Assembly: GCA_944358675.1 (NCBI GenBank)
Contig: CALVRN010000004.1
Coordinates: 10,276-74,275 of the forward strand
DNA: 64,000 bases
Direction of reading: 5' to 3'
DNA from: an uncultured Bacilli bacterium
Lineage (GTDB): Bacteria; Bacillota_I; Bacilli_A; RF39; UBA660
The notes below the pieces were generated by a model. It saw nothing but the letters and a program-made list of their open reading frames with translations, made no database searches and was not told where the DNA came from. Shown here piece by piece: positions 51,907 through 58,312 of this stretch. Made by a program: the position numbers and the translations under genes. Position 1 is the stretch's first letter. Each line of letters opens with the position of its first letter.

Positions 51907-51983
51907 GTCTCCGTAGCTCAGCTGGATAGAGCAACGCCCTTCTAAGGCGTGGGTCGCGAGTTCGAATCTCTCCGGGGACGCCA
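51907..51983 (+). tRNA. tRNA-Arg (anticodon UCU)
   Basis: GTCTCCGTAGCTCAGCTGGATAGAGCAACGCC-CTTCTAA-GGCGT...TTCGAATC...CGGGGACGCCA forms a cloverleaf with encoded CCA. Confidence 0.9.
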
Positions 51984-51986
51984 TTT
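51937..51986 (+). repeat. attL-type direct repeat (3' 47 nt of tRNA-Arg plus 3 nt)
   Basis: Identical 50-mer to 58263..58312. Confidence 0.85.
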
Positions 51987-52000
51987 TTGACTATATAAAA

Positions 52001-52032
52001 ACTTGGAAAAATAAGCATTTCCAAGTTTTTTT
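52001..52032 (+). terminator. tRNA terminator supplied by the element
   Basis: CTTGGAAA-loop-TTTCCAAG followed by T6. Confidence 0.7.
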
Positions 52033-52076
52033 CTGTAATAAAGTAATGATCACAAAGTATCACATATTTACATATT

Positions 52077-52118
52077 ATGGCACTATTTTGGGCACTCTTT
52101 GGGCACCAATTTCGGCAC
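52077..52118 (+). repeat. Four phased GGCAC boxes (11-12 nt spacing)
   Basis: GGCAC at 52079, 52091, 52102 and 52114. The words ATGGCACTATTT and GGCACCAATT recur at 58114..58138. Confidence 0.7.
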
Positions 52119-52197
52119 TCGTTAAAATCACTAATTATCTGTAAAAAAATATGAGCAAAATTTAATGAGTGAAAACCAAAGTTAGTAAACAAAATGC

Positions 52198-52476
52198 GTG
52201 CTAAAATTATTATATAAAGGAGTTAGAAATGGAAAAACAAAATATAAAAGATATACCACTTATCTTTACAGAAAAAATGAAAAAATTGTTAAGGAACTTA
52301 TAACTGTTAAATTTTTGCTAGATAGTGATGCTTTATCTATACAAGATAGGAACGATTTACAAAAGCATTTTGAAACACTTATAAAAGAGTTTAGAAAAGA
52401 GTTAAATCATAACAACCCTAGCGAAATGGAAATGTTAAAAAAATATTTTCAAGATAATAATGAGATAGACAAATAA
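52198..52476 (+). CDS. Small hypothetical protein of the element (start uncertain)
   Basis: The ORF track gives a GTG start. A far better AAGGAG-6 nt-ATG at 52229 is in the +1 frame and would join this frame if the A6 run at 52272..52277 were A7. Confidence 0.4.
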   Translation: MLKLLYKGVRNGKTKYKRYTTYLYRKNEKIVKELITVKFLLDSDALSIQDRNDLQKHFETLIKEFRKELNHNNPSEMEMLKKYFQDNNEIDK

Positions 52477-52525
52477 AATGCCTATCTCCTTTTTGTACCA
52501 ATCTACTAATTAAGTGAGAGGAAAA

Positions 52526-53065
52526 TTATTTATTCCAAAAATTAAATTTAGAATTTTTAAATTTTTCGTATTGTAAACGTGTTATCTCATTTGTTTTCAT
52601 AAATATAAAAGGGTTTACTAAAATAGCATTGCCTTTGCCTTGTCTATTTTTTTCTAATATGATTATTTCTTTTTTTTCTAATTCTTTTATTGCTCTACTA
52701 AAAGTTTTCTTTGGCATATCAACCATTTGTCTTAATTCTTCCTCATTAAGATACCCATTAAATGTATTACACTTTATACTTATTAAATAACCACTATATT
52801 CTTCAAAACCTATGTGGCTTAACATTGCAAAGATTATTTGATATTCGCTTGGTGTTAAGTGTAATTGGGCTAATATATCACTTGCTTTACAAAAGATTTT
52901 ACAAAAAGTATAATTTTTATTAACTTTCATGTACTCTTGTAAATGCTCTACTTGTGAATTTCTCATGATGTGTACTTTATCGCCTTGATGTATTTCTTTA
53001 CACGCTTTTCCGTTTGTATCAACAATATAACCCTCACTAGGTATTGTTTTTGGTAATTGCAACAT
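52526..53065 (-). CDS. RepL-like winged-helix replication/maintenance protein
   Basis: ATG at 53065 behind AGAGGTG. LTPSEYQIIFAML...MPKKTFSRAIKELEKKEII is wHTH-like and resembles firmicute plasmid RepL. The assignment is from memory. Confidence 0.5.
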   Translation of the reverse strand: MLQLPKTIPSEGYIVDTNGKACKEIHQGDKVHIMRNSQVEHLQEYMKVNKNYTFCKIFCKASDILAQLHLTPSEYQIIFAMLSHIGFEEYSGYLISIKCNTFNGYLNEEELRQMVDMPKKTFSRAIKELEKKEIIILEKNRQGKGNAILVNPFIFMKTNEITRLQYEKFKNSKFNFWNK

Positions 53066-53215
53066 GTTATCACCTCTTGTTAATAATTTTGGTGTCAAAA
53101 ATGACATACGTTTTTCGGTAAAATTGTACAAACATGGCATATAGCAAAATGTCTTTTTTTATTGTAATAAAATGGTAAACAAGTAAAAAGAGGTGTTTAT
53201 CTATCTTATATCTTA

Positions 53216-53563
53216 TTACATAACTCCTCTAGTAGAATAAGAACCATAATTTTTTTCGGCAAACATACAACCTATACAATTTCTCTCAAAGCCTGCCACT
53301 TCTAACTCTCTATAAAATTTCTCTCCAAACAAACCTTTACCTCTTAACATTTTTTGCATTTCTTCTTTAATTGTCTGTTTGATAAAATCTTTCAACTGTT
53401 CTTGTTCCTCTCTTTGTTTTTGATATTTTTCTCTTTCTGATTGTTTGTTCTCATTGTGCCACTTGTCCATAAGTTTTAAAATATCAAATTCTAGTGTTTG
53501 TTCAAAGACTTTCTCAATGTCTTTCGTATCAAAAATATCATTAAAGCCAATTTTTTTATTCAT
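53216..53563 (-). CDS. Hypothetical protein of the element
   Basis: 115-aa ORF with a charged helical centre. Confidence 0.45.
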   Translation of the reverse strand: MNKKIGFNDIFDTKDIEKVFEQTLEFDILKLMDKWHNENKQSEREKYQKQREEQEQLKDFIKQTIKEEMQKMLRGKGLFGEKFYRELEVAGFERNCIGCMFAEKNYGSYSTRGVM

Positions 53564-53637
53564 TTGTTATCACTCCTAAAATTATATTTTTTAACTTTCA
53601 AAGCAATTATAAAAAATGGTGCTAGTGTCTGTATAGT

Positions 53638-56452: not shown

Positions 56453-57274
56453 TTAGTTATAATAAACATTTCCATCTTTATCTATAATGTAAGCATGATT
56501 TATTGCTTTAATTCCGTTATAATTTTCACTCAATATTTTTTCTTTACTTATCGTGTAATTATATTTACATTTGATGTCTACATATTTGTCACATTCTTCT
56601 TTATTAGTTTTATATCTTTTTACTTTATAAAATGCTTTATCTGTTTTAATATAATCATTAATAATACTTTTTACAGTTTCATCTTTAAAGTTGTAATCAA
56701 TATTTTTGTATTCGTCTGTACTCGTTCCACTGTCTATATCATAGTTTTCTTTATATAATCTTATTTTATTATCGACAGATAAAATTGTGTATCCTCTAAT
56801 ACCTGACATAATTGACACAATAACATTGTTACCCAAATGATTAAATTTTTTATGAATTAATTGTCCATTTGTAGATTTATAAAACTTTTTACTTTTTTCA
56901 TCATAAATATATTCACTATCTTTTGTTTCAAATGCACTTGCTTTATAATAAACTATTTCAGAATTAAGGTTTTCAATGGGTATTTCTTTGCAATTTTTAT
57001 CATTAGAAAATAATTTTTCAATATTATATTGATATACTTTATTTTTTGTAACAATATAATCATCATCAAAACCTATAATGTCTTCGCTTAATGCTGGACA
57101 GTCTATTGTAGCAACATACTCATGTTTTTGTTTAAAATCATTACTGATTTTATTTTCATTTGTATTTTGACTTTTATTTTCAATTTTACTTTGGTTATTT
57201 ATATTAATACTAAAAAATATAAATAAACTGACAAATAAAACAATAGATATTAAAATAATGGCTCTTTTTTTCAC
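56453..57274 (-). CDS. Membrane-anchored/secreted protein, paralogue of 54790..55698
   Basis: GTG start, signal-anchor, and IDCPALSEDIIGFDD / IVTKNKVY / KLFSNDKNCK / IINDYIKTDKAFYK blocks. Confidence 0.65.
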   Translation of the reverse strand: MKKRAIILISIVLFVSLFIFFSININNQSKIENKSQNTNENKISNDFKQKHEYVATIDCPALSEDIIGFDDDYIVTKNKVYQYNIEKLFSNDKNCKEIPIENLNSEIVYYKASAFETKDSEYIYDEKSKKFYKSTNGQLIHKKFNHLGNNVIVSIMSGIRGYTILSVDNKIRLYKENYDIDSGTSTDEYKNIDYNFKDETVKSIINDYIKTDKAFYKVKRYKTNKEECDKYVDIKCKYNYTISKEKILSENYNGIKAINHAYIIDKDGNVYYN

Positions 57275-57344
57275 TTAATCCAACACAATATATCATTTTT
57301 ATTCATATATATTTCACTCCTTTCTGTAAGTATTATATCACATT

Positions 57345-57365
57345 TTATCTACGAACGGTAGATAA
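57345..57365. promoter_or_regulatory. Candidate operator (8-5-8 perfect palindrome) in the divergent switch region
   Basis: TTATCTAC-gaacg-GTAGATAA lies between the leftward operon and the XRE gene. Confidence 0.5.
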
Positions 57366-57412
57366 ATAATGAATAAGGTTTTTGAGATAATAATATAAAA
57401 GGTGATGAAGCT

Positions 57413-57667
57413 ATGAACAATGATAAAAATGACGAAAATTATATATATTATGTCATAGGTCAAAATTTAAAAAAGCAACGTAAATTAAAAGGCTTTACCC
57501 AAGAAAAACTAGCAGAGGCAAGCAATTATAATTTGAGTTTTATTGGTAATTTAGAAAGTAGTAAAGTGTTTCAAACTATTTCAGTTGGAAGTCTTTACCA
57601 CCTAGCCAAAATATTAGGAGTATCAATAAAAACATTTTTTGATGACATAGATAATGATAAAAATTGA
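57413..57667 (+). CDS. XRE-family (cI-like) HTH regulator of the element
   Basis: FTQEKLAEASNYNLSFIGNLES helix-turn-helix. Divergent from the cargo operon. Confidence 0.8.
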   Translation: MNNDKNDENYIYYVIGQNLKKQRKLKGFTQEKLAEASNYNLSFIGNLESSKVFQTISVGSLYHLAKILGVSIKTFFDDIDNDKN

Positions 57668-57679
57668 ATGTGCAAAAAA

Positions 57680-57713
57680 GCATATTTTTTATTACCAAAA
57701 ATATGCTCTTTTT
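57680..57713 (+). terminator. Intrinsic terminator of the XRE gene
   Basis: GCATATTTTT-loop-AAAAATATGC followed by TCTTTTT. Confidence 0.75.
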
Positions 57714-57855
57714 AGCTACTATATAAGTGATTTGTTATAGGGGTAATATTTTTTATATTAGAATATATTAAAAAGCACAAAAAAAGTCTAATTCTTAACT
57801 TAAATCACGAATTTAGACCCTGTGTACTCTGCAAAATCAATTTTGTCGACATTTT

Positions 57856-58100
57856 TTTAATCAACATTATCAATGTTTTCTTTAATGTAGTCATATAACA
57901 TTTCGGCTATTTCTTTTTTCTATCCTTATTATCACTATATAAAAAGTCCCAATCATTTACATAATCGACTCCATATAGATTTTCAAATAACAACATCGTA
58001 ATTGCTTGCTTGGTATTATCTTCAATAAATTTATCAGCTAGCTTATTTATTCTATTGGTGGTTAGCTTTGTTTTATTATCAGAGGTATTAAGTTTTGCTT
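57856..58100 (-). pseudogene. Decayed ORF remnant at the right end of the element
   Basis: An open stretch with no usable start, broken at the T6 run 57914..57919, and followed by a hairpin/T-tract at about 57785..57820. No integrase motifs. Confidence 0.35.
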
Positions 58101-58113
58101 AAAAAAAATTAAA

Positions 58114-58138
58114 ATGGCACTATTTATCGGCACCAATT
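58114..58138 (+). repeat. Two GGCAC boxes matching the left-end array
   Basis: ATGGCACTATTT and GGCACCAATT are the same words, in the same orientation, as at 52077..52111. Confidence 0.65.
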
Positions 58139-58262
58139 AAAAAATCAAGTTCAAAAATAGTTACAGGAAAAAATATATAATGCTTATAAAGCCCTTTAAA
58201 TTCAAGGCTAAATCAATGTTTAGAAAAGTTAAAATATTGGCTCTTCGGATATACGGTCATAA

Positions 58263-58312
58263 CCCTTCTAAGGCGTGGGTCGCGAGTTCGAATCTCTCCG
58301 GGGACGCCATTT
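58263..58312 (+). repeat. attR-type direct repeat (orphan 3' part of tRNA-Arg)
   Basis: Identical 50-mer to 51937..51986. No matching tRNA 5' half upstream. Its own terminator is at 58325..58348. Confidence 0.85.

Follow-up and report, generated by a model that had tools for sequence, protein, structure and literature searches.

A probable integrase-deleted remnant of a tRNA-targeting integrative element in uncultured gut Bacilli

A 64-kb stretch of DNA (the window, to whose positions all coordinates refer) from an uncultured bacterium of the Bacilli lineage RF39 (contig CALVRN010000004.1) contains a 6.3-kb segment, 51987-58262, inserted at a tRNA-Arg(UCU) gene between two exact att-type repeats but lacking an integrase gene. 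We consider it very probable, at roughly 0.9, that this segment is what remains of a site-specific integrative element of about 10 kb after deletion of its integrase. The sequence-only reading that preceded our analysis had found the perfect att repeat hard to reconcile with total loss of the integrase. One deletion of about 3.9 kb removes that difficulty: it suffices without gradual decay and has left stumps of both flanking genes. The same reading had raised the possibility of a natively integrase-less satellite, which is not supported, since sibling elements whose shared backbone is 92-98% identical to that of the window carry an integrase gene (int) exactly at the window junction. Of its further suggestion, a plasmid-like island, the RepL-related backbone and the true att-flanked insertion stand and the native absence of an integrase falls.

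The comparisons show the following history. The ancestor encoded an integrase that recognised the 3' half of tRNA-Arg(UCU), and its integration duplicated a 50-nt core and provided the tRNA with a new 3' end and terminator. One deletion of about 3.9 kb then joined codon ~147 of a 242-aa gene to the final six codons of int, removing int itself, the adjacent Xis-like gene and genes for 383- and 86-aa proteins; both att cores and both arm arrays stayed intact, as did the rep operon, repressor and cargo. The deleted copy is common to the whole sampled lineage. Without its own integrase the element would presumably no longer excise and would be inherited vertically; in intact members the RepL-like protein may replicate the excised circle. 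Perfect att sites without an integrase thus need no new class of integrase-less element, one deletion being enough, and the missing integrase is an ordinary, recent decay event that opens no new mechanistic question.

Missing integrase and deletion junction

The absence of an integrase, as originally described, was borne out by profile and translated searches. No recombinase domain was found with Pfam in any of the nine substantial open reading frames (ORFs) of the element or in six-frame reading of both non-coding ends, and tblastn with three family integrases against the whole window returned nothing (best E 0.02). The relatives used for comparison were assembled from the genomic contexts of homologues of the element's winged-helix protein, from loci in named genomes and from every context of the identical XRE protein. 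Three of them, L019, L038 and L039, are collinear with the window at 92-93% identity over 52098-54071 and at 98% over 57304-58081. The alignment then skips 3,935 bp of the siblings (L019 1158-5092; L039 10670-14604) and resumes at window 58096-58237 with 77-78% identity. This skipped stretch contains the 5' two-thirds of the 242-aa gene, the genes for the 383- and 86-aa proteins, an HTH_17 gene next to int, and almost the whole of int. The sequence stops matching L039 precisely after 58081, placing the deletion junction at 58081/58082.

Both sides of this junction carry recognisable gene ends. What survives of the 242-aa backbone gene, codons ~147-242, lies on the minus strand at 57803-58081 and has a single frameshift near 57910-57919; its nucleotide identity to L019, L038 and L039 is 98%, and tblastn aligns residues 147-242 of the L019 protein to the minus strand of 57803-58089 at ~91% identity. 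A decayed ORF in the free space at 57.72-58.11 kb had been recognised earlier and judged not to look like an integrase, rightly so: this ORF, at 57.8-58.1 kb, is the C-terminus of the 242-aa gene and was rejected as an integrase remnant. What that description overlooked is the 21-nt tail of a tyrosine integrase gene on the plus strand at 58082-58102 (GAG GTA TTA AGT TTT GCT TAA), made up of the final six codons and the stop and reading EVLSFA-stop. In alignment it matches the C-terminal ends of the integrases from L023 (DEVLSY-stop) and from L019 and L039 (DTVLKNA-stop). The tail is followed in the window by the block AAAATGGCAC...GGCACCAATTAAAAAATCAAGTTC, and the same block directly follows the int stop codon in siblings.

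Several observations weigh against reading the segment as a deletion remnant. The integrase tail is only 21 nt long, so that its identity rests on position and three or four shared residues. Identity to the closest siblings falls to 77-78% in the right arm, which implies that the ancestor had a different, unseen allele of the int/att module. An intact sibling whose integrase is specific for tRNA-Arg(UCU) was not recovered, and the size of the deletion is therefore deduced from siblings that target tRNA-Leu. The exact attR-junction pattern had no matches in metagenome and viral collections, and a scan based on the Rep protein yielded only three short or distant loci from metagenomes and none from the viral collection. 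Finally, the remaining backbone genes are all intact, as would also be expected if the element were still functional somehow. In favour of a deletion remnant, other states of decay occur among the siblings, with int split in L042 and the Rep end lost in L040.

Insertion site and inheritance

The intact tRNA-Arg(UCU) gene occupies 51907-51983 on the plus strand (ARAGORN tRNA-Arg(tct); Rfam tRNA, 59.9 bits). Its last 47 nt plus TTT form the attL core, 51937-51986, and recur on the same strand as the attR core at 58263-58312, which is the tRNA's original 3' part, now displaced. A repeat search confirmed this 50-mer, already noted from the sequence alone, as exact, with 53 of 54 nt identical on extension; the 47 nt of tRNA occur exactly twice in the window (51937-51983 and 58263-58309), against none expected by chance. 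The second copy had been interpreted as an att duplication, and indeed it has no tRNA 5' half and neither ARAGORN nor Rfam calls a tRNA there. Each copy was also correctly said to have its own terminator: hairpins followed by U-runs lie on the plus strand at 51997-52030 or 51997-52033 (-13.2 kcal/mol, z -4.4) and at 58312-58352 (-13.1 kcal/mol, z -4.6), with z about -4.5 at both. The former is borne by the element and serves the reconstituted tRNA, the 3' 47 nt of which are now provided by the element side of attL. The latter is the native tRNA terminator, which directly adjoins the tRNA where sister lineages have the site empty (alignment to L029 attB).

Empty sites were looked for in related genomes, as the sequence-only reading had proposed, and were found only in sister lineages (L029 and L030). 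These share the enolase...topA neighbourhood and a downstream gene 85-87% identical to that of the window, lack the element, and have a single tRNA-Arg(UCU) whose core is identical to the window's. When the left flank through 51986 was joined in silico to 58313 onward, the product aligned to L029 as one block of 154 nt at 93% identity. Since the joined flanks align contiguously, the segment is a real insertion and an empty attB exists.

This also disposes of the proposal that the 50-mer reflects a partial tandem duplication of the tRNA with the intervening genes belonging to the core genome. The segment does occupy the same place in all strains of the lineage. However, sister lineages have tRNA-Arg(UCU) directly before the downstream gene, the same backbone occurs with integrases at four or five other tRNA genes, and the tail of an integrase gene and arm sites lie inside the segment. 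The empty site and the integrase-positive siblings refute this explanation, to which we attach almost no probability.

Within the window's own lineage the picture is uniform. The deleted element is present in all 23 contigs that encode an identical left-flank protein and in all 23 with an identical right-flank protein, and no empty site or other location was seen among these 46 contig observations, for which both flanking proteins were looked up. Nor was a tandem array or an excision junction seen at this locus among lineage contigs. Over 6,440 nt, complete copies have 0-6 mismatches, and a partial copy, L028, has 17 mismatches and four gaps over 3.9 kb. The deletion arose once and was then inherited across the sampled lineage.

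Arm sites and the possibility of continued mobility

Just inside the two att copies lie short arrays of the motif GGCAC, which the sequence-only reading had missed. Four direct copies spaced by 11-12 bp at 52079-52118 (plus strand) are proposed as P'-arm integrase sites, and two direct copies 13 bp apart at 58116-58133 (plus strand), within the conserved block GGCACCAATTAAAAAATCAAGTTC, as P-arm sites. In intact siblings GGCAC/GTGCC arrays flank the core on both sides, in the same place as in the window. Several features suggest that the integrase, through its conserved N-terminal domain, uses them as arm-type sites. Loci L015 and L021 share RepL-like proteins that are 97% identical, yet the array is present only in L021: the arrays follow the att/int module rather than RepL. 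Conversely, the array is conserved where the N-terminal 51 residues of the integrase are 86-98% identical though the RepL-like proteins are only ~59% identical.

These distributions bear directly on whether the arrays are instead iterons of the RepL-like initiator, marking the origin of the excised circle rather than integrase arm sites. Some 400 bp do separate the largest array from the rep gene's 3' end, and the spacing of 11-13 bp, about one helical turn, is iteron-like. Yet a second array sits at the opposite end, right after the int stop codon, so that in the circular form the attP core is bracketed by two or three copies after int and three or four on the other arm. With the array also missing beside one of two nearly identical RepL-like proteins and kept beside divergent ones, we think iterons unlikely.

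Retention of cores and arm sites invites a further question, namely whether the copy is still a working hitchhiker, a CIME (cis-mobilizable element) or satellite excised and moved by the integrase of a sibling, either in trans, which the sequence-only reading had considered a real possibility, or after tandem accretion. The two 50-nt cores are identical, the 4 + 2 GGCAC arm motifs are kept, and the RepL-like, HTH_17 and XRE genes have stayed intact, with 96-100% identity to the copies in int-positive siblings. Such siblings, with the same GGCAC arm motif, are common in related organisms; an extra cargo gene past the int end in L040 and L042 hints at tandem arrays; and the formation of CIMEs by deletions of this kind is documented (PMC5704250). 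Against this, an integrase specific for the tRNA-Arg(UCU) core is absent from all collections searched, and the siblings known so far insert at the 5' half of tRNA-Leu or at other tRNAs and thus differ in core specificity. Furthermore, the Xis-like gene adjoining int has been deleted as well, the copies are near-clonal, and the lineage shows the element at a single location only. We accordingly judge a functional hitchhiker improbable, and the specific scenario of excision by a sibling integrase followed by replication as a plasmid is in our view just as improbable. Were it true, the element would be a CIME-like, plasmid-type parasite of an undescribed integrative-element family in small-genome gut Bacilli. 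A presumably immobile remnant, left by deletion of the integrase, is by far the better account.

The element family, known systems and retained genes

The winged-helix protein has a small family of homologues (55-96% identity). The contexts that were assembled show a family of elements in metagenome-assembled genomes (MAGs) of uncultured gut Bacilli; Ca. Coprosoma or similar MAGs are among the hosts, as are two circular chromosomes, of 1.3 and 1.5 Mb. Intact members are about 10 kb long. From the tRNA they run through a GGCAC array, a small ORF and the genes for the RepL-like, 115-aa and HTH_17 proteins to variable zinc-ribbon and membrane cargo; after the cargo come XRE, the 242-, 383- and 86-aa genes, a second HTH_17 gene (65-97 aa), an integrase of 375-376 aa, another GGCAC array and the far att site. 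A tyrosine integrase (PF00589) is present in L019, L023, L024, L038 and L039; matches had E-values of 6e-31, 1.5e-32 and 2.6e-26, accompanied by a SAM-like domain and a PHROG integrase match at E 1e-72. Siblings are inserted at tRNA-Arg(CCU), Gly(UCC), Lys(CUU) and Leu(GAG), the window copy at Arg(UCU). The int/att modules of the family are interchangeable and target at least five tRNA genes.

At tRNA-Leu(GAG) it is the tRNA's 5' half that is duplicated in the siblings (nt ~1-37, as far as the anticodon loop), with copies at 973-1011 and 11215-11252 in L019, 5580-5600 and 14749-14769 in L038, and 4510-4530 and 14751-14771 in L039. Such elements supply the 5' half of the functional gene, and presumably its promoter too, the reverse of the usual targeting of the 3' part.

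The 383-, 242- and 86-aa proteins of the siblings belong to no detectable family. The 383-aa protein (L019 3494-4645; deleted in the window) belongs to a set of 380 clusters at E <= 1e-3, none of which has a match in Pfam, PHROG, PADLOC, NCBIfam or PDB; it is predicted, with low confidence, to be all-helical (AlphaFold2 pLDDT 50). No relaxase domain was found in the window ORFs or the sibling-specific genes with Pfam and PHROGs, nor was a coupling protein or type IV secretion system, and neither the scanned backbone proteins nor the sibling 86/383/242-aa trio has a PHROG match to packaging or morphogenesis functions. The element has no relatives in annotated phage or plasmid records, including none in 72,556 plasmid records, and a literature search on RF39 integrative elements found no paper. 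This family of tRNA-targeting integrative elements in uncultured gut Bacilli is undescribed.

Among known systems the closest parallel is with CIMEs, defined as elements derived from integrative and conjugative elements (ICEs) or integrative and mobilizable elements (IMEs), retaining their att sites but having lost their integration genes (PMC5704250). The window element fits this published definition: attL and attR are both kept, with cores identical at 50/50 positions and arm motifs on both sides, and the integration genes were lost through the mapped deletion of ~3.9 kb. As in the ICESt1-related CIMEs of Streptococcus thermophilus, the att sites are intact and int was lost by deletion from an int-bearing ancestor, cargo and regulatory genes are kept, and related int-positive elements circulate in related hosts. 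In contrast to CIMEs, the parent family has no conjugation or mobilisation genes recognisable with Pfam or PHROGs even in intact siblings, cis-mobilisation by accretion was not observed here, and the host lineage, uncultured gut Bacilli, has a small genome. The lack of a relaxase domain likewise sets the element apart from IMEs.

Resemblance to lambda-type tRNA islands and prophage remnants lies in the duplication of the tRNA 3' part as att core with supply of a new 3' end and terminator, in the tandem short motifs on both attP arms, and in the sibling integrase, which has N-terminal, SAM-like and catalytic domains and is adjoined by a Xis-type helix-turn-helix (HTH) gene. Of the marks of such an island, tRNA-derived repeats and an empty site were found here and a tyrosine recombinase of its own only in the siblings. 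The window copy differs in having no integrase, and some siblings in duplicating the 5' half of tRNA-Leu(GAG). Phage-inducible chromosomal islands and the Staphylococcus aureus pathogenicity islands are similar in size (~10 kb in intact members), in having an integrase at one end and variable accessory genes, and in the XRE-type repressor divergent from an operon with a Xis-type HTH and a replication protein. Unlike them, the element shows no terminase small subunit, capsid-remodelling or packaging-interference genes (PHROG) and no primase-helicase; the window copy also lacks int, and there is no sign of a helper phage.

The present analysis offers, as a by-product, the outline of an unannotated ~10-kb family with a tyrosine integrase, a RepL-like protein, three conserved unassigned proteins and variable zinc-ribbon membrane cargo. 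This should be useful for annotating these MAGs, and the window copy provides a clean natural example of CIME formation.

Between attL and the cargo the window retains four backbone genes. A small conserved ORF on the plus strand at 52198-52476, 92 aa as listed and 76-92 aa in relatives, has no match in Pfam, PHROG and further family searches. It is followed on the minus strand by the gene for the RepL-like winged-helix protein, a putative replication initiator, at 52526-53140 (the likely true start would give 179 aa, 52526-53065), and by that for a conserved 115-aa protein at 53216-53563, which is 100% identical in L019 and for which no family match was found. The fourth, at 53638-53802 on the minus strand, belongs to the rep operon and encodes a 54-aa DNA-binding protein of the HTH_17 (Xis/AlpA) type. 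The excisionase-type HTH proposed at this position is thereby confirmed (Pfam E 5e-13), and the protein also matches PHROG excisionase and DNA-binding families.

The label 'RepL-like', already applied from the sequence alone, holds only indirectly. The window protein falls below the RepL threshold, with no Pfam RepL match at E <= 1e-3 or even at E <= 1, and has weak matches to Rep3_N and to PHROG replication families. An exhaustive profile search gave 289 representatives of its relatives, 57 of which were sampled for Pfam; 12 of these distant relatives match RepL (PF05732; best E 3e-10), and the remainder include matches to Phage_rep_O, Rep3_N, RP-C or DnaD_N. The AlphaFold2 model is poor (pLDDT 56), with a winged HTH (wHTH) at residues 133-175; a fold search with it gave only non-significant wHTH and RepA_N matches, and sequence searches of the PDB only generic wHTH proteins. 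The protein is best described as a putative replication initiator, probably a distant relative of RepL. It shares with the RepL proteins of small Firmicute plasmids (PF05732) a family that partly matches that profile and a similar size of ~180 aa, but differs in falling below the RepL threshold and in belonging to an integrated element rather than a free plasmid.

Four cargo genes fill a variable block on the minus strand at 54069-57274. They encode a 221-aa double zinc-ribbon protein (54069-54734), a 311-aa protein (54790-55725), a 212-aa SH3_3 protein (55808-56446) and a 273-aa protein (56453-57274), the 311- and 273-aa proteins being paralogues of no known family. The description of four membrane or secreted cargo genes agrees with what we find, hydrophobic N-terminal or central segments being present in all four. 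Their order is unlike that in siblings. A 37-nt direct repeat, 95% identical between 54035-54071 and 55758-55794, brackets the genes for the 311-aa and zinc-ribbon proteins; it occurs once in L019 and L039, after the SH3 gene, where the cargo order differs. Together these suggest cassette-like reshuffling of the cargo.

Beyond the cargo, an 84-aa XRE-family repressor (Pfam HTH_3, E 8e-8), 100% identical in int-positive siblings, is encoded on the plus strand at 57413-57667. Between it and the divergent cargo/rep operon lies a perfect palindrome at 57344-57366 (TTTATCTAC N5 GTAGATAAA), a putative operator. Repressor and palindrome are both real as reported, the latter being 9-5-9 and not 8-5-8. 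A promoter scan was uninformative in this DNA of 27% GC.

Individual family members show various rearrangements. The integrase gene of L042 (13481-14610) is split into 126 + 245 aa, and L040 (7685-8428) has lost the end carrying the small ORF and the RepL-like, 115-aa and HTH_17 genes. In L022 (4886-6500), which may be an assembly artefact, the int module is missing and XRE adjoins a PBP5-like gene. A 301-aa homologue of the 311-aa cargo gene of the window (91% nucleotide identity) lies outside the int end in L040 (15709-16614) and L042 (15707-16612), and may be a remnant of a tandem (accreted) element. Other mobile genes are found nearby: a Mob_Pre relaxase and a large serine recombinase adjoin tRNA-Leu in L039 (280-3841), and L010 has an insertion of an IS21-family element (IstA/IstB) close to its int end (280-2332).

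The surroundings of the tRNA gene in the window are also variable. A 185-aa gene upstream of it (51224-51781, within a differing stretch, 51099-51842) and ~300 nt between attR and the downstream gene (58323-58620) are absent from L029 and L030, and window 58399-58511 matches, inverted and at 76% identity, the end of the His_Phos_1 gene found after the tRNA in L032. The neighbourhood is an indel hotspot. Just downstream of attR, an arylsulfotransferase-like gene (PF05935; 58672-60290) is split into ORFs of 98 and 397 aa by a frameshift in an A-run near 58950-58968, present in 23/23 lineage contigs; in sister lineages the protein is single, with 528-537 aa.

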